From positions 5,545 through 69,544 of the forward strand of contig CAKSKG010000006.1 in assembly GCA_934464775.1 (NCBI GenBank): a stretch of DNA of 64,000 bases, in the 5' to 3' direction. This stretch comes from an uncultured Oscillospiraceae bacterium (lineage in GTDB: Bacteria; Bacillota; Clostridia; Oscillospirales; Ruminococcaceae). Made by a program: the position numbers and the translations under genes. A model generated the notes under the pieces. The model was not told the origin of the DNA. It saw only the letters and a list, made by a program, of their open reading frames with translations, and did not search any database. Positions within the stretch are counted from its first letter, which is position 1; the number at the start of each line of letters is the position of its first letter. Below are positions 3,747-44,176 of this stretch, piece after piece.

Positions 3747-4412
3747 TTATAAAGGCTTTTTCACGGCAATAAGATACTTTATCTTCTTGCCCTCTTCGCT
3801 GAACATTTTCTCATGCTCGGTAACGATATTATCCTCAAGATTTTCCGCATGAAGATCACGGGTGATGTACTTTATCTCAAAGCCCGTTTCCTCAAAATAC
3901 GGTATGGATTCCTCGAAAAGCTGATCGTCGTCCGTCTTGAAGCGGATCTCTCCGCCGTCTTTCAGGAATATCCTGTACTGCTCCAGCTGACGTGTATGGG
4001 TCAGTCTGCGCTTCTGATGCTTTCCTCTGGGCCATGGATTGCAGAAATTGATATATATTCTGTCAACGGTATCCTCGGCGGAAAATGCGTTGGATATCAT
4101 TGATATATTGTCCGACACAAGGCGGATATTCTCGGGCTTTCTTCCTGCCTCGGCAAAAAGCTTTTCAATGGTGCGTCTGCCGACTGCAAGCATCTCGCTC
4201 TTGATGTCAACGGCTATCCAGTTAACATCGGGGTAACGGAGCGCCGCCTGCGCAACGAACACGCCCTTGCCGCAGCCAAGCTCCACATACAGCGGCTTGG
4301 AATTATCATCAAATACCGTGTGCCACTTTCCCTTCATGGCGTCCGCTCTTTCAATATAATACGGACACTGCGCCAGTTCGGGACGTGCCCATGGTTTTCT
4401 TCTCATTCTCAT
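3747..4412 (-). CDS. trmB: tRNA (guanine-N7)-methyltransferase
   Basis: 221 aa. VELGCGKGVF SAM-binding motif and ...NFCNPWPRGKHQKRRL typical of TrmB. Confidence 0.85.
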   Translation of the reverse strand: MRMRRKPWARPELAQCPYYIERADAMKGKWHTVFDDNSKPLYVELGCGKGVFVAQAALRYPDVNWIAVDIKSEMLAVGRRTIEKLFAEAGRKPENIRLVSDNISMISNAFSAEDTVDRIYINFCNPWPRGKHQKRRLTHTRQLEQYRIFLKDGGEIRFKTDDDQLFEESIPYFEETGFEIKYITRDLHAENLEDNIVTEHEKMFSEEGKKIKYLIAVKKPL

Positions 4413-5309: not shown

Positions 5310-6851
5310 ATGAGCGTTAGATTTGACCTTACCGCTGTTGCACCCGAGCTGCTTGATGCGGTAATCAACATGGACAACTCCCCTGCATACGAAGCTTTTA
5401 AGGAAGAGATCGAGAGCATTCTCAAGGAATTCAATGAGTCCGCTCATTTCGGTTCAAGCCTTACTATCGACGAAAAGGCACTTACCGACAATTCCGTTGA
5501 AACAATGAAGAATATGCACCATGCATTTCTTCTCTGGACTATCCGTGACGAGCTGAAAAACGGCGGCGATGCCGAGACAGGCTACAAGGCTTATGTCAAG
5601 CTGTTCTTCAAGGCAAACTGCGACAAGATAGCAGCCCTCAACGGCGGCAGCATGACTGTTGCAGCCTCCGAGGCGGCTTCTCTTATCAAGGCATTTCTTG
5701 CCGAGATCGGCAAGGACGCTGAGCTGTACAAATCCGTCAAGGAATTTTTCAAGGGGTATATCTACGGTTACAGCTTCAACTATCTCACCGAGCAGGTGAT
5801 CATGGAAAAATATGCGGAATTTCTTGTATGCCTTGGCATGATGACAGGAAAGATCGCCGCTTCCATTTCCGCACAGCAGAAGATCATGCCAAAAATGGCT
5901 ATGCTGCTGGGCAATGACCGCTTCAAGTATATCAGCGGATTTATCCCTCTCGATATCATGCTGGATATCATATATGACCGCTTCTGCTTCCCCAATCTTT
6001 CCGATGAGGAAACAGAAAAGATCCACGGCATAATCAGAAAATATATCCTCGAACATTTTGAGATGCAGAAGGACGACGAGGCAACAACGCTCATTTCCAC
6101 ACAGGTCACAGCCTCGCTCATGACAGACATGAACGGAAACTATGTCAATGTTCCCGCATATTCCGAGCAGACCTTTGCAGGCTGCTTCGGCGGCGTCCGC
6201 AGCTTCCTCGGCGCCGATAAGGAGGACTTCGGAGAGTTTGACGCCGCAACTATCGCAGGCATCATCAACGGAAAATGCTCCGCAGACTTTGTTCAGTATT
6301 TCACAACAGAGCGTGAGCCGAATCTTGAAGTTGCGCTGGGCGGCGACGATATCGGATACAAGTATCCTCTGGTTTTCAGAGATGCTTCCGATTACTGGTA
6401 CTCCCCTATCTATCAGCATCTGATAAACGATCTGCTTGACAACAAGATCTATTCGTTCATTGATACAAACAATCTTCCCCTTGACATCTTCCCCTTTGCG
6501 GACGAGGTACTCAAAACGAATGCTATCCGTACATATACAAACAGCTCCGCAACGGGCTATTCTATCAGAGCGGACAAGAAGCAGGTGCTTATCCGTCTTA
6601 TCGACATCAACTCCGCACCCTCTCTTTCCGACTCCGAAAAGAGGATGCTTATGCTTGAACAGATTCTCTATATCCTTTCGGGCAACTGCGATGCAGACAA
6701 GTACAACAAGCTTGTTATCGACAACGTATTCAACGGCGAGCTTTACGATGAGTATGTTATGTACCGCATAAACAAGATACTCGAACAGGGCAGCGGCAGT
6801 GTTGATGCAAAGAAGTCACTGCTCCGGCAGGTAATTGCTATCAAGCTCTGA
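5310..6851 (+). CDS. hypothetical protein (513 aa, soluble, apparently helical), no family recognised
   Basis: Long uninterrupted ORF. ATG at 5310 lies 8 nt after AAGGTGG. Followed by a terminator. No TM segments, signal peptide or catalytic motifs that I recognise. Confidence 0.75.
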   Translation: MSVRFDLTAVAPELLDAVINMDNSPAYEAFKEEIESILKEFNESAHFGSSLTIDEKALTDNSVETMKNMHHAFLLWTIRDELKNGGDAETGYKAYVKLFFKANCDKIAALNGGSMTVAASEAASLIKAFLAEIGKDAELYKSVKEFFKGYIYGYSFNYLTEQVIMEKYAEFLVCLGMMTGKIAASISAQQKIMPKMAMLLGNDRFKYISGFIPLDIMLDIIYDRFCFPNLSDEETEKIHGIIRKYILEHFEMQKDDEATTLISTQVTASLMTDMNGNYVNVPAYSEQTFAGCFGGVRSFLGADKEDFGEFDAATIAGIINGKCSADFVQYFTTEREPNLEVALGGDDIGYKYPLVFRDASDYWYSPIYQHLINDLLDNKIYSFIDTNNLPLDIFPFADEVLKTNAIRTYTNSSATGYSIRADKKQVLIRLIDINSAPSLSDSEKRMLMLEQILYILSGNCDADKYNKLVIDNVFNGELYDEYVMYRINKILEQGSGSVDAKKSLLRQVIAIKL

Positions 6852-8415: not shown

Positions 8416-8670
8416 AAAAAGACCATATGCAAAACGCATATGGTTCATCAACAAAAATAAAAGATTCCACCCAGCCGCCATGTGGCGAATAAAACCCGCA
8501 CAAAGCAGGTGGGCAACAGCCCGACAGTTTCACGCTCCCTGCGTCCGTGGGTCCCATCATCTAAATGGGCGGGAGGTCTGCAATCTGCTGACGGAGCCTG
8601 AATCCCTAATTAAAAGTGTTGGATTATAAAACCACACTTTATCGGTCAAGGCAGAATCTTTAACTTTCTG
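8416..8670 (-). ncRNA. stand-alone structured non-coding RNA of about 255 nt, family unrecognised
   Basis: Own near-consensus promoter immediately upstream. The closing helix is about 18 bp (8643..8661 with 8460..8477) and includes three G-U pairs valid only on the minus strand. Internal hairpins at 8613..8640, 8553..8569, 8532..8544 and 8511..8522. It ends in a 10-bp hairpin plus T5 (8416..8445). No credible ORF. Confidence 0.6.
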
Positions 8671-28118: not shown

Positions 28119-28847
28119 TTACTTTTCCGAAACTGCATTTCTGAGAGCCCTTACCTCTTCCGTGGAAAGCTCACGCCATGTACCGGGCTTCAGCATACCC
28201 ATTTTAACGGGACCGATAGCGATCCTGCGGAGTCTTGCCACTTCAAGTCCCACAGCCTCGCACATTTTTCTGATCTGGCGGTTCCTGCCCTCCTTGATAA
28301 CGATGAGCATGACCACTCTTCCCTCTTCCTGGGAAAGCACCTCAACGGTGGCAGGGAGAGTTTTTCTTCCGTCGATCTCAACGCCCGTGGAAAGCTTGAT
28401 GATCTGCTCCTCGGTGATCGAGGGGCGCACCGTTACACGGTAGGTCTTTGAGATATGGCGGCTGGGGTGCATTATATCATTGGCAAAATTGCCGTCATTT
28501 GTGAAAAGCAGCATTCCCTCGGAATTTCTGTCAAGACGTCCCACGGGATAAACTCTGTCCTCAACGCCGTTCAGCAGCTCGGTAACGCATTTTCTGTCCA
28601 GCTCGTCGGACATTGTGGTAACATATCCTCTGGGCTTGTTGAGCATGATGTAAAGCTTTTTCTTCTTTTTGGGAATATCTATCCTCTCGCCGTCAAGAGT
28701 GATAACATCTCTTCCGCCTGCCTTGTCGCCCAGCAAAACAACGTGACCGTTCACCTTTACTCTTCCCTGAGAGATAAGCTCCTCCGCCTTTCTGCGTGAG
28801 CATACTCCCGCATCGGACATGATCTTCTGGATCCTAATTTTTTCCAT
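28119..28847 (-). CDS. rluB: 23S rRNA pseudouridine synthase (RsuA/RluB family)
   Basis: S4 domain (RIQKIMSDAGVCSRRKAEELI) and catalytic VYPVGRLDRNSEGMLLFTNDG. Confidence 0.85.
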   Translation of the reverse strand: MEKIRIQKIMSDAGVCSRRKAEELISQGRVKVNGHVVLLGDKAGGRDVITLDGERIDIPKKKKKLYIMLNKPRGYVTTMSDELDRKCVTELLNGVEDRVYPVGRLDRNSEGMLLFTNDGNFANDIMHPSRHISKTYRVTVRPSITEEQIIKLSTGVEIDGRKTLPATVEVLSQEEGRVVMLIVIKEGRNRQIRKMCEAVGLEVARLRRIAIGPVKMGMLKPGTWRELSTEEVRALRNAVSEK

Positions 28848-28876: not shown

Positions 28877-29045
28877 TTAGAACCTGTCTTCACAAGAAAT
28901 GTGTGCGGATTTTCGAGCATAATTTTGTCTAAGACAAGGCAAAAATCCGCAGGCGGGCTTGCCGCCCGGCAAGGATTTTTAACGCAGTCTTAGGCAAAAT
29001 TTGCCGAAAAGACGTGCGCATACGCTTGTGAAGACAGGTTCTTAA
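28877..29045 (+). repeat. long imperfect-palindrome element, copy A (MITE-like or structured-RNA repeat)
   Basis: 17-bp perfect terminal inverted repeat (28880..28896 with 29025..29041). Nested helices continue up to an apical CGGGC/GCCCG stem. Homologous to 43738..43917. The 4 G-U pairs are valid only on the plus strand. Confidence 0.7.
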
Positions 29046-29112
29046 AGCCGGACTGCCGCCTCACGGCGGGATTTTTATATCACAGACCGTCAGAAAACCG
29101 CCGATCTGTTTT

Positions 29113-30270
29113 TCACATACTGTTTGCCGTCTCAAAAAAATCCTTTATTTTATCAATAAGCTTTTCAAAAAAGGACTTTTCTTCGGTTTCTGTCGGTGCG
29201 GAATAATACTCGGTGCTTTCGGCAGCTTCAAGAGTGCATTCGGCAAATACCCGTCCGTCCGCCGAAAATTCCATTTTTCCGCACACCTGCCCCTCTTCAA
29301 CGGGAGCATACACAAAATTCGGAACGATCACACGGCAGGTTATCTCGGGATTGTATCCGTCCGCCGAGGGATATATCACCTCTTCCGACTGTATGAGCCG
29401 AACCGAATCGGCATATCCGCCCACAACATCGGCTCTTACCTCCCCCATATCCACCGATACGGGACATATCCTTGAATATGCATCATCGTACATATTCATA
29501 TGATCGTTCCAATCGTTTCGGTCATTGAGAGTGACGCACACAAGACGCACTCCGTTCCGCTCACAGGCGGAAACAAGACATCTTCCCGCTTCATCGGTAA
29601 AGCCTGTTTTCACGCCGATACAGCAGCCGTACATATTCAGCAGCTTGTTGGTGTTTTTCAGATATCTGTCATAAGGCGGATTCCCGAAGTGGGTCTTTAT
29701 CGTCGGACTTGCGCATATCTCGGCAAAAACATCGTTTTCAAGTGCCTCCGATGCCAGCAGCGCCATATCATATGCAGTCGAATAATGCTCATCGTCATGC
29801 AGCCCCGAGGGAGTGACAAAATGAGTGTTCCTCATTCCGATAAGCCCTGCTCGGAGATTCATAAGCTCCCCGAACCTTTCAATGCTTCCCGCAACATATA
29901 CAGCCGATGCATTTGCCGCATCATTTCCCGACGGCAGGAGCATTCCCGCACACAGGTCACGTCCCGTAACGATATCTCCCTCCCGAAGCCCCATGGACGA
30001 GCCTTCGGTCTTTATCGCTTCGGAGTCCACGGTAAATTCTTCGTCAAGAGAACCGTTCTCTATAAGCAGCAGCGTTGTCATTATCTTTGTGGTGCTTGCC
30101 ATAGGCAGCTGTTCGTTCATGTTTTTACCGAACAGAACCTCTCCCGTATCGGGCTGATAGACCACCGCCGCCTTTGCGGAAATATCCTCTTCGGAAAGAG
30201 CATACACCCTTACCGACGAAGCCGAGATCACCGCCGCAGCGGCACATATGCAGACTGCAATTTTTTTCAC
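29113..30270 (-). CDS. D-alanyl-D-alanine carboxypeptidase (serine-type, PBP5 family)
   Basis: Signal peptide. SxxK (ASTTK), SGN and KTG motifs are all present. Confidence 0.9.
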   Translation of the reverse strand: MKKIAVCICAAAAVISASSVRVYALSEEDISAKAAVVYQPDTGEVLFGKNMNEQLPMASTTKIMTTLLLIENGSLDEEFTVDSEAIKTEGSSMGLREGDIVTGRDLCAGMLLPSGNDAANASAVYVAGSIERFGELMNLRAGLIGMRNTHFVTPSGLHDDEHYSTAYDMALLASEALENDVFAEICASPTIKTHFGNPPYDRYLKNTNKLLNMYGCCIGVKTGFTDEAGRCLVSACERNGVRLVCVTLNDRNDWNDHMNMYDDAYSRICPVSVDMGEVRADVVGGYADSVRLIQSEEVIYPSADGYNPEITCRVIVPNFVYAPVEEGQVCGKMEFSADGRVFAECTLEAAESTEYYSAPTETEEKSFFEKLIDKIKDFFETANSM

Positions 30271-34858: not shown

Positions 34859-37800
34859 ATGCTCGATAAAAACAAAATCAAATCCTACGCTTGGAGCAGC
34901 GATACCTATTTTAACGGCAACGATGATTTCTATAATCAGTATGCCGAGATCGAGGATATCACTGTGGATACCGACGGCGATACAAACATTTCCGCCCGTG
35001 TAAGCAGCGAGAACGGAAATATCTATGAATGTGATGTCACGCTCAAAGGCGAAAACAATGATTCCGTGATATTTGCAGCCTGCAGCTGCCCTGCAAAGTG
35101 CGACAAATATGGCTACTGCCGTCATGTTGTGGCGGCGCTTCTCCAGTATACCTCACTCGGCACCCGCAATATCATGAGCCGCAAAAAGCGTCTCAGCTCC
35201 CCTATGGTCAACTCGCTTATCTATGAATACAACAAGCTTGCGGAATCCGAACCCGAATATATCTCCCCGCAGGATAAGGTCACGATACAGCCCTGCATCG
35301 ACGTTTATGCAGACGGTCTGACCCTTTCACTGAAAATAGGCAGACAGAAAATGTATGTGGTGAAAAACATCCCACAGCTTATAGAGGACGTTGAAAACAA
35401 TACCGTCCGTGCTTACGGAAAGGGTCTTGAAATACGTCACAGCCGCGAGATACTCACCGAGGAGAGCCGCAGTCTTCTTGATTTTGTTGCAAATATCATA
35501 AATATAAGCAGCTCGTCCCGTTCATATTATTACAGCTACGCCGACCGAAGCAAATACGTTACTCTCCGGGACAATCTCATCGAAAAATTTTTCAGGATGC
35601 TGCCCGATAATCAGATAATTGCCGACGGCAGACAATGCCGCATATGCTATGACGATCCCGATGTAACCATGCGCCTTGAAAAATCCGACGGCGGAATTTA
35701 TACCCTGACCGCCATTTCCGCCATGCAGATAATCGGCAAGGGCAGACGTGCCTGCTTCTATGACGATTACCACGGGGTATTCTATCTCTGCTCGCCGAAA
35801 TTCAGCACAGCAGTGAGCGGACTTTTCCGTGCCATGCAGAAATCGGGAATGGAGCTGGATATCACCGAAAACGATATGCAGGCATTTTACACCTCGGTAA
35901 TCGTCCCCGTGAAAAAATATATCCACATTGAGGGTGACGGCGAGCTGGAAAAATATATTCCTCCCGAAGCGGAGATACGGCTTTATCTGGACTCCCCCTC
36001 TCCGTCCGAGGTGTGCGGACGCTTGGAATTCACCTACGGCAGCAGCACATTTTCCGCATTCGGCGACAAATCGAAAAATCCCGTCTGCGATATCCGCACC
36101 GAGAATATGGCGGAGCGTGCCGTCTTAAAATATTTTACCCTTAACGAAAACGACGATCACCACCCGCTTATTGCTGCAGGCGATGACAGCATTTACAGAC
36201 TTTTCTCCGAGGGCGTTCCCGACCTCACCAATATAATGGAGGTATACGCCAGCGAGCGCTTCAATAATATGTCGATCCGTCCACCTGTCCGCCCCACAGT
36301 GGGAGTTCGCCCCAAAAGCGGACTGCTGGCGCTGGATATCGACACAGACGGCTACACCGTAAAGGAGCTGGCACAGATGCTTGCCTCCTATCGCCGCGGA
36401 ATGAAATATCACCGTCTCCGTGACGGCTCCTTTGTGAGCCTTACCCAGAGCGGCATCGAGGATTTTGCCGAGCTGGCGGACGGACTCAACATCACCGACA
36501 AGGCTCTGCTGAAAGAAAATATCACCGTCCCACGCTACCGTATGCTGTATCTTGACAGCTTGCAGGAGCGCAGCGGCGGAATGCGCCTTAAAAGAAGCTC
36601 CGATTTCAGAAATGCCGTCCGTGCATTTTCCGATATTTCTTCGGCGGAATATGACATTCCCTCCGATCTTGACGGCGAAATGCGAGAATATCAGGTCTAT
36701 GGCTTCAAATGGCTGAAAACAATTTCCGCCTACGGCTTCGGCGGCATTCTTGCGGACGATATGGGTCTGGGAAAAACTATCCAGTCTATCGCACTGATGC
36801 TTTCCGCCCGTGAGGAAAACAGGCAAAAGGGCGTTCACGGAACATTTCTCGTTGTATGCCCATCATCGCTTACGCTGAACTGGGAAAGCGAGCTTCACCG
36901 CTTCGCACCTACTCTGAAAGCGTCGGTGATAATCGGCACCGCTCCCGTCCGTGCCCGGAAAATATCCGAATATGCGGAATACGATGTGCTTATAACCTCC
37001 TATTCCATGCTTACAAGAGATATCGCCGAATACGAGGACAAGGAATTTCAGATACAGTTCATCGACGAGGCGCAGTTCATCAAGAACCACAACACCCAGG
37101 CTTCAAAGGCTGTCAAGGGAATAAAAAGCAGCATTCGCTTTGCCCTTACGGGTACTCCCGTGGAAAACAGCCTTGCGGAGCTTTGGAGCATATACGATTT
37201 CATAATGCCCGATTATCTTTTCGGCTACACCCACTTCAAGCAGACCTATGAAACGCCTATCGTAAAAAATGCCGATCAGCACGCCGTTGAGGCACTCAGA
37301 AAAATAACCTCGCCGTTTATTTTAAGGCGTCTGAAAAAGGACGTCCTCACCGAGCTGCCCGACAAGACCGAAATAACCCTTACCTCGGAAATGACCGAGG
37401 AACAGCAGAAAATATACGCCGCAAACGTGCTTTCCATGAAAAAGCGCCTGAAAGAAAAATTCCTTGCGGCAAATCCCAACGAGGGAAAGATCGAGATACT
37501 TGCGATGCTGACCCGTCTGCGGCAGATATGCTGCGACCCGTCGCTGGTTTATGAAAATTACACCTCGGGCAGCGCAAAGCTGGAGCAGTGCATGGATCTG
37601 ATAGAAAGCTGCGTCACATCGGGACATAAGGTGCTGCTGTTCTCCCAGTTCACGTCCATGCTGGATATAATCGAGCGCCGTCTGAAGCGTGAGGGCATCG
37701 GATATTATATCCTTACGGGCGCAACCAAGGCGGACGAACGCCTGCGGCTGGTAAACAGCTTCAACAAGGACGATACCCCCGTGTTCATGATCTCGCTGAA

Positions 37801-40622: not shown

Positions 40623-41306
40623 ATGGACAATATCACTATAACCGAAATAAACCGTGAAGAAGCATTCAGATACATGGCTGCGGAGGGCTTTACTCCCGAC
40701 GGCGTGCTTGCGGACCTTGCGGACGAATGCGAAAGGCGGCTTATTGAAACGGTGCGCCCGAGATACACTTATAAAGTATATCCCATTGAATCGAACAACG
40801 GAAGCGAGACTGTCCTTTCGGGCTTTCCCGCAAAGCTTGAGGGAAAGGATATTTCCAATCTGCTGGAGGGCTGCCATTCGGCAGTTGTGATGTGTGCCAC
40901 TATCGGCGCAGAAGCAGATGCACTTATCCGCAGAATGCAGGCGGAGGACATGGCAAAGGCGGTCATGACCGACAGCTTCGCAAGCGTTGCGGCGGAGCAG
41001 GTGTGCAATGCATTTGATGAGATAATACGTGAAAAATATCCCGACAAATTCATCACATGGAGATTTTCACCCGGCTACGGCGATTTTCCCATATCAATAC
41101 AGAAAAAGCTTCTGGAGGCGCTGAACGCAATGCGCCTTGCGGGAGTCTGTCTGAATCCGTCGGGAATGCTCACTCCCGTAAAATCGGTAACGGCAGTCTG
41201 CGGAATATCCGATCACGAGCTGCCAAAGCGCCGCAGAGGCTGCGCTTCCTGCACCATGAAGGGTCGGTGCGCATACAGAAAGAGAGGTACCCGCTGTGAA
41301 TTTTAA
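40623..41306 (+). CDS. methionine synthase activation (reactivation/SAM-binding) domain protein, encoded separately
   Basis: 227 aa. Lies between metF and metH. ...FSPGYGDFPI... is typical of the Met_synt_B12 domain. Cys-rich tail CASCTMKGRCAYR. Overlaps the metH start by 11 nt. Confidence 0.7.
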   Translation: MDNITITEINREEAFRYMAAEGFTPDGVLADLADECERRLIETVRPRYTYKVYPIESNNGSETVLSGFPAKLEGKDISNLLEGCHSAVVMCATIGAEADALIRRMQAEDMAKAVMTDSFASVAAEQVCNAFDEIIREKYPDKFITWRFSPGYGDFPISIQKKLLEALNAMRLAGVCLNPSGMLTPVKSVTAVCGISDHELPKRRRGCASCTMKGRCAYRKRGTRCEF

Positions 41307-43692
41307 ACAGCTTTTGAACGATAACGAATTTGTATTCCTGGACGGTGCCATGGGTACAATGCTCCAGGCAAAGGGAATGCAGCCGGGCGAAACTCCCGAG
41401 CTTATCAACATTGAAAAGCCCGAATGGACCGAGGATATCCACCGCAGCTACATCGAAGCAGGCTCAATGATAGTTTACGCCAACACCTTCGGCGCAAACC
41501 GCTACAAGCTTGAGGAATGCGGAAAAACTCCCGACGAGCTTATCCCCCCCGCAATCGAAAATGCAAAAAAGGCAGTTCACGGAAAGGGTCTTGTTGCCCT
41601 TGATATCGGACCTATCGGTCAGCTGCTTGAACCTACCGGAAGTCTCACATTTGATGAGGCTTATGAGCTTTTCAAAGAAATGATAATCGAAGGAAAGGAC
41701 GCAGACGTTATCGTTATCGAAACGATGACCGATCTTTACGAAACAAAGGCGGCTCTCCTTGCGGCAAAGGAAAACAGCAGCCTGCCCGTTATCGTAACAA
41801 TGACCTTTGAGCAGAATATGCGCACATTTACGGGCTGCTCCGTAAGCTCAATGGCAGTCACTCTTGAAGGTCTGGGCGCAGATGCGATCGGCGTAAACTG
41901 CTCTCTCGGTCCCCGTGAGCTTTATCCCGTTGTGGAGGAGCTTTCAAAGTGGACAACACTTCCTATCGTGCTGAAGCCCAACGCAGGTCTGCCCGACCCC
42001 GAAACGGGACTGTATGACGTTACTCCCGAGGAATTTGCCGAAAGCGCAGCCCAGCTGGTAAAGCTTGGCGTAAAGATATTCGGCGGCTGCTGCGGCACCA
42101 CACCCGATTATATCCGTGCGCTGGTAAAGCGTCTTTCAACGGAAAAATATGTGAAGCTTGAAAAGCATATCCCCCCTGCGGTGTGCTGTCCCGCAAATAC
42201 GGTCGTTATCGACCAGCCGAGAATAATCGGCGAAAGGATCAACCCCACAGGCAAAAAGCGCTTTAAAGAAGCGCTGATAAACGGCGATGTGGACTACATT
42301 TTAAGTCAGGCTATAGAGCAGGCTCAGGCAGGCGCTGATATCCTTGATGTAAACGTAGGTCTGCCCGATATCGACGAAGAGGGCATGATGTTGAGAGCTG
42401 TAAAGGCTATCCAGGGCATCACCGATCTGCCATTGCAGATAGATTCAACAATGCCAAACGTGCTTGAACACGCCCTTAGAATATACAACGGAAAGCCTAT
42501 CGTCAATTCGGTCAACGGCGAGGAAAAATCATTGCAGAACGTTCTGCCGCTGGTAAAGAAATACGGTGCCTGCGTTGTTGGACTTACCCTTGACGAAAAC
42601 GGTATCCCCAAAACCGCAGACGAGCGCTTTGCAATTGCCGAAAAGATCCTTGACCGTGCTCTTGCGATCGGCATTCGCCGCGAAGATGTGTTCATCGACT
42701 GCCTTACCCTCACCGCATCGGCAGAGCAGGCAGGAGTTATGGAAACGGTTAAGGCAGTGTACCGTGTAAAGCATGAGCTGGGACTGAAAACGGTTCTCGG
42801 CGTGTCAAACATATCCTTCGGTCTGCCGAACCGTGAGCTTGTGAACTGCAACTTCCTGCAAATGTGCCTTACAAACGGACTCGACCTGCCTATCATGAAC
42901 CCCAATGTTGCATCAATGACAGGCGCAGTCAGGGCATACAAGGTGCTGACGAACATCGACGTCAACTCCATGGACTACATCAAGGCATACAACGGCGTGA
43001 AGATGACAACATCTGTAAGCCAGCAGAACACGGCTGCATCTGCTCCCGCAGCGGAAGCAGGTTCTTCTGACAGCAGCGGACTTCTCCATGCAGTCGAAAG
43101 CGGACTTAAAGCCGAAGCCGCAAAGATAACCGAAAAAATGCTGGAAACGGACGATGCAATGGATATCATTGACAAGATCCTTATTCCTGCGCTGGATAAA
43201 ATAGGTGCGGATTTTGAAGCGGGAAGAATATTCCTGCCCCAGCTGATACTTTCCGCAGGCGTTGCCCAGTCCTGCTTTGATGTTATCAAGAAAAAGCTTG
43301 CATCGGGCAGCAGCGAGCCTGTTGCAAAGGGCAAGGTCATTCTTGCGACCGTAAAGGGCGATATCCACGATATCGGAAAAAATATCGTCAAGGTGCTGCT
43401 GGAAAACTACGGCTATGATGTTATAGATCTTGGCCGTGACGTTGAGCCTCAGCTGGTAGTTGATACGGCAATTGCTCAGGACGTGCGCCTTGTTGGACTT
43501 TCCGCACTTATGACAACAACGCTTAAATCAATGGAAGCAACGATAGATCTGCTCCATAAGAATAATGTAAACTGCAAGATCGTAGTTGGCGGAGCCGTTC
43601 TCACCCCCGAATATGCGGAAAAGATCGGTGCGGACTTCTATGCAAGGGACGCAAAGGCAACGGTTGACGTAGCAAAACAGATATACGGATAA
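41296..43692 (+). CDS. metH: cobalamin-dependent methionine synthase (Hcy-methyltransferase, pterin-binding, B12-cap and B12-binding domains; no activation domain)
   Basis: 798 aa with a GTG start. LDGAMGT..., GGCCGTTP, and the B12 motif GDIHDIGKNIV...SALMTTT. Confidence 0.9.
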   Translation: MNFKQLLNDNEFVFLDGAMGTMLQAKGMQPGETPELINIEKPEWTEDIHRSYIEAGSMIVYANTFGANRYKLEECGKTPDELIPPAIENAKKAVHGKGLVALDIGPIGQLLEPTGSLTFDEAYELFKEMIIEGKDADVIVIETMTDLYETKAALLAAKENSSLPVIVTMTFEQNMRTFTGCSVSSMAVTLEGLGADAIGVNCSLGPRELYPVVEELSKWTTLPIVLKPNAGLPDPETGLYDVTPEEFAESAAQLVKLGVKIFGGCCGTTPDYIRALVKRLSTEKYVKLEKHIPPAVCCPANTVVIDQPRIIGERINPTGKKRFKEALINGDVDYILSQAIEQAQAGADILDVNVGLPDIDEEGMMLRAVKAIQGITDLPLQIDSTMPNVLEHALRIYNGKPIVNSVNGEEKSLQNVLPLVKKYGACVVGLTLDENGIPKTADERFAIAEKILDRALAIGIRREDVFIDCLTLTASAEQAGVMETVKAVYRVKHELGLKTVLGVSNISFGLPNRELVNCNFLQMCLTNGLDLPIMNPNVASMTGAVRAYKVLTNIDVNSMDYIKAYNGVKMTTSVSQQNTAASAPAAEAGSSDSSGLLHAVESGLKAEAAKITEKMLETDDAMDIIDKILIPALDKIGADFEAGRIFLPQLILSAGVAQSCFDVIKKKLASGSSEPVAKGKVILATVKGDIHDIGKNIVKVLLENYGYDVIDLGRDVEPQLVVDTAIAQDVRLVGLSALMTTTLKSMEATIDLLHKNNVNCKIVVGGAVLTPEYAEKIGADFYARDAKATVDVAKQIYG

Positions 43693-43737
43693 AAAAGTAC
43701 AGATGCGTCGGCATGATGATATAAGTCATGCCGATGC

Positions 43738-43917
43738 TTAAGGTCGCATCTAAAAACCATAGTATCTCAGATGCGCAGTCAGATTTTTCGTCAGATTGTA
43801 TAGAAATTTCGCAGGCATACTGGCGTATGTCAAGAAATTTATGTGCAAGCTGACGGAAAATATGCAAGCATATGAGGTACTAAGGCTTCAGCCGGTGGTT
43901 TTTAGAGGTGACCTTAA
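43738..43917 (+). repeat. long imperfect-palindrome element, copy B (same family as 28877..29045)
   Basis: Terminal inverted repeat TTAAGGTCGCATCTAAAAACCA with TGGTTTTTAGAGGTGACCTTAA. Nested helices carry about six G-U pairs valid only on the plus strand. The apical GCAG/CAA internal loop is shared with copy A. Confidence 0.7.
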
Positions 43918-44006: not shown

Positions 44007-44036
44007 TTGACAAATGTGTTTGATGTGTGTTATAAT
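44007..44036 (+). promoter_or_regulatory. sigma-A-type promoter for rpmG-secE-nusG
   Basis: TTGACA (44007..44012), 18-nt spacer, TATAAT (44031..44036). Confidence 0.55.
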
Positions 44037-44176
44037 AGTAATACCTCTTATGGAGGTTTATTTTTTTGCATTTTTGCAGATAAAAAACCTCCGGCGCAAA
44101 AGCGTCAGAGAGGGAGGCAGAGGGGATATTCCCCCATAAACGAAACGCTTGAAAAAGCATAACAGGAGGTGCCGAT

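Follow-up and report, generated by a model that had tools for sequence, protein, structure and literature searches.

In a 64,000-nucleotide stretch of the genome of an uncultured Oscillospiraceae bacterium (contig CAKSKG010000006.1, positions 5,545 to 69,544; hereafter the window), two long interrupted hairpins stand at 28877-29045 (copy A) and 43738-43917 (copy B). An earlier note, made from the sequence alone, had proposed that they are RNA-level structures with a loop that contacts a protein or ligand, and had left a transposable element of the miniature inverted-repeat kind (MITE) as an alternative. It is the alternative that holds: both hairpins are almost certainly foldback MITEs of gut Ruminococcus and Oscillospiraceae, moved by IS5-type transposases, and do not represent a new RNA gene. 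Both A and B are small, have inverted ends, lie between target-site duplications of fixed length and belong to dispersed, polymorphic sets of copies; an autonomous insertion sequence (IS) with the same ends was found for A only. The many copies, the duplications, a parent IS and exact empty sites speak for the MITE alternative, and it is the duplications, empty sites, parent IS, random orientation and neutral variants that tell against a contact loop acting at the RNA level.

Both window copies are insertion polymorphisms within the species. Element A proper is a 162-bp foldback (28880..29041; plus is the better-folding strand) whose extent follows from flank contexts, an alignment of 46 copies, folds and its presence or absence among strains. 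It runs GAACCTGTCTTCACAAG...CTTGTGAAGACAGGTTC, with GAACCTGTCTTCACAAG as the left terminal inverted repeat (28880..28896, plus) and its reverse complement as the right (29025..29041, minus), and it lies 29 nt upstream of the start codon of an rluB-type pseudouridine synthase gene (28119-28847, minus), between this gene and a Peptidase_S11 D-Ala-D-Ala carboxypeptidase gene (dacB, 29113-30270, minus). A 3-bp duplication, TTA, flanks it on the left (28877..28879) and on the right (29042..29044), the latter assigned from flanking triplets and empty sites. Eleven contigs carry rluB at 99-100% identity, and their dacB-rluB spacer measures about 100 nt in eight and 265 nt, as in the window, in three. 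At eight of these 11 conspecific loci (L239, L240, L242, L243, L245 and L247-L249), A is absent and a single TAA, read on the rluB-sense strand, marks the point of insertion: the aligned empty sites (L239, L245, L249) read ...CCGGCTT-TAA-CAAGACGG..., and occupied sites read ...TAA-element-TAA.... A terminator-like hairpin at 29053-29069 (plus), which the earlier note had described as following copy A, is also found in strains without the element; since the empty alleles have it, it belongs to the native dacB-rluB spacer and is no part of A.

Copy B shows the same pattern with other ends. It is a 172-bp foldback of the same superfamily (43742..43913, plus; end class B2), with a left terminal inverted repeat GGTCGCATCTAAAAACCA (43742..43759, plus), recognised by complementarity and by recurrence elsewhere, and a right one at 43896..43913 (minus). 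Its duplication is the 4-bp TTAA, at 43738..43741 on the left (empty sites L252, L255 and L257) and at 43914..43917 on the right (empty-site alignment). Of nine contigs with identical SecE, eight lack the element and have a spacer shorter by 176 nt, and only L258 has it. Where B is missing, the sequence is GCCGATGC-TTAA-ATGTAT, with TTAA only once (L252, L255 and L257 were aligned, and five more loci share the short spacer); where B is present, it is TTAA-GGTCGC...GTGACC-TTAA. The site lies between the terminator-like hairpin of a metH-type methionine synthase gene (41296-43692, plus) and the promoter of rpmG-secE-nusG. Immediately past the metH stop, at 43705-43737, is a 13-bp stem-loop GCGTCGGCATGAT...GTCATGCCGATGC; because B was inserted in its T-rich tail TTAAATGTATTTT, it parts the stem from the tail.

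Copies of the A type are numerous and dispersed. At least 120 stretches of metagenome contigs contain the 18-mer of the A outer stem and, in species-representative genomes, at least 115 contain a 17-mer variant of the A end; in both scans many matches to the end sequence fall at contig ends. A profile search of all fetched DNA recovered 114 full-length A-type copies in 99 distinct flank contexts, which is a lower bound for Ruminococcus and Oscillospiraceae genomes and gut metagenomes; the A-type ends are kept across alignments of 46 and 96 sequences. Flanking triplets match in 73 of 84 copies (TTA 42, TAA 24, TCA 6, TGA 1), from which we deduce a 3-bp TNA target-site duplication. Several metagenome-assembled genomes (MAGs) and R. 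callidus hold at least 6-7 stretches with the end sequence each. The host records named include R. callidus, R. flavefaciens FD-1, R. bromii, Huintestinicola butyrica, Hominimerdicola and many Ruminococcus and Oscillospiraceae MAGs, and the animal sources include human (also Hadza), mouse, rabbit, deer, goat and termite guts. A search of a plasmid collection gave no match to the element. Orientation relative to adjacent open reading frames (ORFs), crudely defined by a simple greedy caller, is random, with 34 sense and 37 antisense at 3' ends and 27 and 33 at 5' ends, and one contig (L117) bears A-type copies in both orientations. The search of the genome and its relatives that the earlier note had suggested yields at least 99 contexts, TNA duplications around most copies and no orientation bias.

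Some contigs carry the element in settings of their own. Seventeen unannotated 'Bacteriophage sp.' contigs from human faeces (e.g., MT836087.1, MT835604.1) contain A-type copies, in up to 3 places per record; these may be phages of the same hosts that bear MITEs, or bacterial DNA in virome preparations, and such copies indicate spread or contamination, not function. In a Hadza gut contig (L002/L003:1586-1853), an identical rluB and element A are preceded by a cellulase-family gene in place of dacB, and the homology of L002 to the window (29042-29113) stops exactly at the end of element A. Two copies of the MITE may have recombined, or the assembly, whose coverage is low (2x), may be chimeric at the repeat. 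Many contigs, L001 among them, terminate inside the element.

A likely source of mobility for A can be named. The A left end is identical to the ends of IS5-family elements in L028, L038, L044, L077, L106 and L234, and such ends are found in pairs, with a spacing of about 780-826 bp, in L028, L038, L044, L077, L092, L106, L113 and L234; these elements of about 800 bp are mostly flanked by TNA duplications (TGA, TAA, TTA). The one at L038:4122-4932 carries two ORFs, of 127 aa matching PF13340 (DUF4096) and of 118 aa matching PF13586/PF01609 (DDE), with all three matches above their cut-offs, and together they cover positions 2-124 and 138-240 of the NCBIfam model transpos_IS5_3. The second frame is open upstream through the GGAAAAAAACG run at an offset of -1 from the first, and this run of seven A is, on its sequence, a classic A-AAA-AAA slippery site predicted to join the frames by a -1 frameshift. 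An IS of about 0.8 kb with two frames joined by a -1 frameshift and a 3-bp TNA duplication presumably falls in the IS427/IS1031-like subgroup of IS5, which these features define in the ISfinder grouping. MITE and IS have in common the ends (about 17-19 bp) and a few further bases, CACAAG-AAA on the transposase-proximal side and CACAAG-C on the distal side; on the slim basis of these bases just inside the ends, the plus strand of the MITE appears to match the transposase-sense strand of the IS.

In the mechanism that we propose, a transposase with DNA-binding (DUF4096) and catalytic (DDE) parts, encoded in two frames and fused by the frameshift, would act in trans: it would bind both ends of A, excise the element and paste it into a TNA site (mostly TTA or TAA), where a staggered cut would duplicate 3 bp. 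Copy B would be a diverged relative that targets AT-rich tetranucleotides, here TTAA, with a 4-bp duplication; its other ends and longer duplication suggest that a different transposase moves it. The long hairpin exists because the whole element is a foldback. In that inserted copies decay neutrally and lie in random orientation, they point to no RNA function at the level of the host, and a host-level RNA gene, a riboswitch-like element or a conserved terminator is not supported.

The folds themselves are as striking as had been described. By RNAfold, the plus strand of copy A reaches -95.6 kcal/mol (z = -12.2) and that of copy B (43738-43917) -85.4 kcal/mol (z = -12.6), values equalled by 0 of 200 shuffles in either case, and the two are the sole extreme outliers in a sliding fold of the whole window (180 nt). 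The minus strands are less stable (A -78.6, B -60.8 kcal/mol) and, compared with the plus-strand folds, have fewer G-U pairs (2 against 4 in A; 0 against 7 in B). All seven sub-helices reported for A recur in its minimum-free-energy fold, among them a second stem of 9 bp with three G-U pairs (28899-28907 / 29013-29021), a third helix UUUUCG/CGAAAA, a fourth stem of 15 bp with one U-G pair (28921-28935 / 28987-29001), the helix AAAAAUCC/GGAUUUUU, the internal loop GCAGG/GCAA and, at the apex, the stem CGGGC/GCCCG; the outer stem is perfect (100% complementary) as claimed, but it measures 18 bp (28879-28896 / 29025-29042), not 17. The inverted arms of B are 22 nt long and 91% complementary. No ORF of at least 40 aa lies within A, and a single 41-aa ORF overlaps B.

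That A and B have the same layout, as the earlier note had held, is borne out by the hairpin of B and by profile hidden Markov models (HMMs), which link the two by descent: models built from A and from B each find the other type, in the same orientation. Of the sequence blocks said to be shared, the GCAG and CAAG loop strands are homologous, but GATTTT(T)CG is not positionally so, for the alignment of the family sets A's GGATTTTCG against B's CAGATGCGC, and B's GATTTTTCG against A's TAATTTTGTC. The interior of B (positions 32-158) is about 75-80% identical to elements of a class that we call B1 (L108, L097, L090, L110, L009), which end in GGCAAYACCGCACAAAG and have 4-bp repeats TTAA, ACAA and CAAG. 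The ends of B itself, GGTCGCATCTAAAAACC, are also seen in L184, L185 and L258, with TTTA, TTAT and TTAA repeats; B-type elements as a whole have 4-bp duplications of TTAA, ACAA, CAAG, TTAT and TTTA. The apex of B is 86% identical to that of an A-like subfamily with ends GAGCTTGTGTTCATAGG, and the same core is found with yet other ends, namely GAGCCTGTTCACATAAA, GAAACTGTTCCAATAG, GAACTTGTTCCAATAGG, GAACCTGTCCACATAGC, GACCTCCACGGAAA, TAGTCGTTTAACTTAAG and GGCCTTGTTTGAAA.

Deletion derivatives are common and all of them are still hairpins. They include symmetric apex deletions of about 107-132 nt, as would be expected if the tip of a DNA hairpin were removed in vivo, and a 47-nt form that retains the ends and 13 nt. 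This core-less form stands between TNA duplications, and in both orientations, at no fewer than 15 separate loci, so the core is dispensable for movement; copies that lack no more than the apical loop are likewise flanked by duplications at many loci. Mini-derivatives also form clusters: in L016, at 3975-4080 and 5491-5523, a B1-type mini beside an A-type 47-nt mini flanks the gene of a 335-aa AraC-type regulator, and the sole candidate for a parent IS of B (L016, 3979-5507) proved to be this host gene between mini-derivatives. Elsewhere, a B1-class element (2228-2409, TTAA flanks) is nested within an A-type element that has 318 nt between its ends (L169:2133-2467), and in a related species with rluB 86% identical (L250/L251:1210-1290) a B1-type end pair 64 nt apart between ytfJ and dacB homologues represents a mini-derivative inserted elsewhere in this neighbourhood of genes.

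Several points weigh against the identification of these hairpins as transposase-driven MITEs. Mobilisation in trans is something that we infer. Each ORF of the parent IS alone scores below the 110-bit cut-off of transpos_IS5_3 (102.3 and 60.8 bits), the gene being split into two frames; for B, a search through 1.8 Mb of loci for paired B ends spaced as in an IS found no transposase. One foldback core is kept although its ends come in about 14 variants and its duplications in two lengths (3 and 4 bp). Among 46 distinct A-type copies, 32 of 66 pairs have compensatory, both-side changes. In 92 of 96 A-type copies (means -82.5 vs -66.1 kcal/mol) and in 14 of 14 representatives of the end classes, the plus strand folds more stably than the minus strand, and in 13 of the 14 it is richer in G-U; among these representatives the wobbles are spread over 35 alignment columns, so they are not one inherited accident. 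A conserved interior is not expected of a plain MITE.

The covariation between helices that the earlier note saw in two copies is therefore real, as is the strand-specific wobble pattern, in that an excess of G-U on the plus strand recurs across end classes. In the 46 copies, 96.1% of cells form standard pairs, and 0 of 500 shuffles and no slid register approach the observed values. Across 96 distinct A-type sequences there are 441 G-U cells and 81 A-C cells, and the intermediates between CG and TA are almost all G-U: pair 17-152 is CG in 56, TG in 21, TA in 16 and CA in 1, and pair 53-117 is TA in 41, CG in 26, TG in 16 and CA in 1. Because the copies are related by descent, such counts are not independent events. 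According to the earlier note, many copies in both orientations with target-site duplications and no covariation would indicate a plain MITE; we find the copies, both orientations and the duplications, but also covariation, and since only this last clause departs from a plain MITE, the first interpretation retains partial support.

Variants present in four or more copies comprise 15 G-U and 5 A-C types (by subtraction), whereas rare variants (three copies or fewer) comprise 39 G-U and 38 A-C types, singletons 21 and 22, and single transitions away from a Watson-Crick majority 21 and 26. Resident copies thus decay neutrally with no sign of constraint, and the lack of a G-U bias among rare variants implies that any structural constraint acts on propagating lineages and not on copies in residence. 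The most economical reading is selection on propagating lineages for the folding of one strand, as RNA or as single-stranded DNA; folding with DNA parameters gives the same strand asymmetry (-56.6 vs -47.3 kcal/mol), so folding does not separate the two.

The same data raise the possibility that the foldback core is functional for the element, in that one strand must fold, as RNA or single-stranded DNA, for the element to propagate, for example because this could unite both ends for the transposase or present the conserved GCAGG/CAAG and GACAAGG/AACGCAG loops to a factor. Such a function would add to the MITE identification rather than replace it, and we hold it to be possible while leaning against it. 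It would account for the compensatory changes and paired cells, for the G-U excess among shared variants and cells, for the CG-to-TA intermediates, for the greater stability and wobble content of the plus strand across classes, and for the fact that deletion derivatives all stay hairpins. It sits poorly with the core-less 47-nt derivatives and their duplications, with the descent that links the counts, and with the degree of conservation: across classes, core identity is 0.63 against 0.52 for the ends, so that the core is only modestly more conserved, and within the core, conservation is no higher at unpaired positions (0.59) than at paired ones (0.63), unlike what is seen in many functional RNAs. 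To our knowledge, moreover, DDE cut-and-paste transposition has no single-stranded intermediate. A stronger version, which we consider doubtful, is that the core of about 130 nt is a portable, strand-specific module that has been repeatedly re-equipped with the ends of different IS5-type transposases and kept since one strand must fold for it to spread or persist. If true, the folding need of the core would be a structural demand of which no case is known among DDE cut-and-paste MITEs.

A chromosomal structured RNA, either a small RNA (sRNA) or a cis-regulator transcribed from the plus strand whose apical internal loop contacts a protein or ligand, would also draw on the covariation, the strand-specific wobbles and the very stable fold, and the GCAG and CAAG loop strands are indeed conserved in most classes. 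We nevertheless regard it as very unlikely. Most conspecific strains have neither locus occupied by the element, there are target-site duplications and a parent IS, the copies point at random with respect to genes, the 'terminator' past A is native flank, and rare variants show no G-U preference; the loop motif is missing in some classes (e.g., L009 B1 and L090), and apex-deleted and core-less copies persist. A scan for sigma-70-like promoters inside A and B found none. The CATAAT conserved in A-type left arms was considered as a promoter and rejected, having no usable -35 and not being conserved in B. The comparison with Rfam that the earlier note had recommended returned no family at A or B: at the gathering threshold, the only match in the whole window was 6S RNA, and a permissive search of A and B (E-value up to 10) gave three chance-level matches of at most 16 bits. 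The 6S/SsrS RNA lies at 8460-8660 (minus) and scores 47.5 bits against a cut-off of 46.4.

The apex of copy A, in which an A-tract, a G+C stem and a T-tract follow one another, suggests a portable transcription terminator or insulator that halts transcription from either side and is retained by the host for this reason; a consensus scan calls terminator-like sites there on both strands, at 28958-28973 (plus) and 28968-28950 (minus). Yet of 96 copies only 15 have such a site on the plus strand, 49 have one on the minus strand and 10 on both, most end classes, including copy B, have none, and an internal loop separates the G+C stem from the T-run. Insertion polymorphism and neutral decay likewise oppose retention by the host, so that we give this explanation little credence. 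The apex terminator as a conserved function was rejected, since its sites vary from copy to copy and from class to class.

A strand-specific, imperfect hairpin with bulges also resembles the substrates of single-strand recombination, such as integron attC sites, REP/BIME repeats with a RAYT transposase or the palindromes associated with IS200/IS605-type elements, and the break in synteny exactly at the element boundary in L002 would suit such a system. Of all the explanations, this is the one we find hardest to credit: the hairpins have true inverted ends in common with a DDE-type IS5 element, their insertions directly duplicate 3 or 4 bp, whereas we know of no HUH or tyrosine single-strand system that makes such direct duplications, and the copies are dispersed among housekeeping genes without cassette arrays. 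Read directly, the ends GAACCTG.../...CAGGTTC-TTA misfit the R''/R' consensus RYYYAAC/GTTRRRY of attC (GTTCTTA vs GTTRRRY). REP/BIME and IS200/IS605-type elements are short G+C-rich palindromes with a conserved 5' tetranucleotide, linked to RAYT or TnpA(Y1), and lack inverted ends and duplications; they were rejected on the size of 162-172 bp, the inverted ends and duplications, and the DDE partner.

The MITE identification also accords with known systems. Like other bacterial MITEs derived from the IS5 family, whose eukaryotic counterpart is the Tourist MITEs of PIF/Harbinger, these elements are short and non-coding, have inverted ends that match an IS5-family IS (DUF4096 plus DDE_Tnp_1 with a -1 frameshift) and a 3-bp TNA/TWA duplication, and are dispersed and polymorphic in both orientations. 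They differ in that the interior is an unrelated long foldback and not an internally deleted IS, and in that one and the same interior is joined to about 14 variants of the ends, with duplications of two lengths. ERIC/IRU, Correia (CREE), RUP and YPAL are intergenic imperfect palindromes of 100-170 bp that form long RNA hairpins if co-transcribed; some repeats of this type have a TA duplication (Correia, RUP) and a presumed IS partner, and the families are reported to affect mRNA stability or processing. Our elements resemble them as dispersed whole-length palindromes and appear to be set apart by their hosts (Proteobacteria or Streptococcus for the former), other ends and other duplications, and by the absence of orientation bias among the Ruminococcus copies. 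An overview of the ERIC/Correia type is available (PMC3184786).

The nearest precedent is bcr1 of the Bacillus cereus group, a MITE-like Firmicute repeat of about 155 bp with 5-bp direct repeats that is strain-variable and reported to be transcribed, and whose predicted two-stem, cruciform-like fold is maintained by compensatory base changes (Delihas 2011, PMC3184786). The Ruminococcus elements are likewise MITE-like Firmicute repeats with flanking direct repeats, variation among strains and compensatory changes; on description they are set apart by one long hairpin, a parent IS for A and duplications of 3 or 4 bp, and these last, compared with 5 bp, argue against membership in bcr1. A survey of MITEs in 183,232 prokaryotic genomes mentions MITEs in Ruminococcus in passing and finds MITEs shared between hosts and viral contigs (NAR 2024, PMC11602168), in line with our copies in 'Bacteriophage sp.' faecal contigs. 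In the literature, outside the supplementary tables of that survey (PMC11602168), we found no description of the family, the foldback core or the parent IS.

Two further features of the window deserve mention. Downstream of copy B, a sigma-70-type promoter at 44007-44036 (plus) matches 12 of 12 positions (TTGACA, 18 nt, TG-TATAAT) and precedes rpmG, secE and nusG, and a small hairpin with a T-run follows it at 44043-44057. A third inverted repeat, at 35762-35905, has 18-nt arms that are 83% complementary and 108 nt apart; it is no outlier in the folding scan and is unlike any MITE end.

For the annotation of Ruminococcus and Oscillospiraceae genomes, these results mean that such hairpins are to be treated as mobile repeats and masked, rather than annotated as sRNAs. 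The elements also disrupt metagenome assemblies, many contigs ending within them. Their polymorphic insertions are natural markers for the tracking of strains and could alter the expression of rluB and of rpmG-secE-nusG. The less ordinary aspect of the family is that a single foldback core is paired with many end classes and two duplication lengths. Conserved across those classes with compensatory changes and wobbles on one strand, this interior is a case in which one could test whether folding as a single strand matters to an element mobilised by a DDE transposase.

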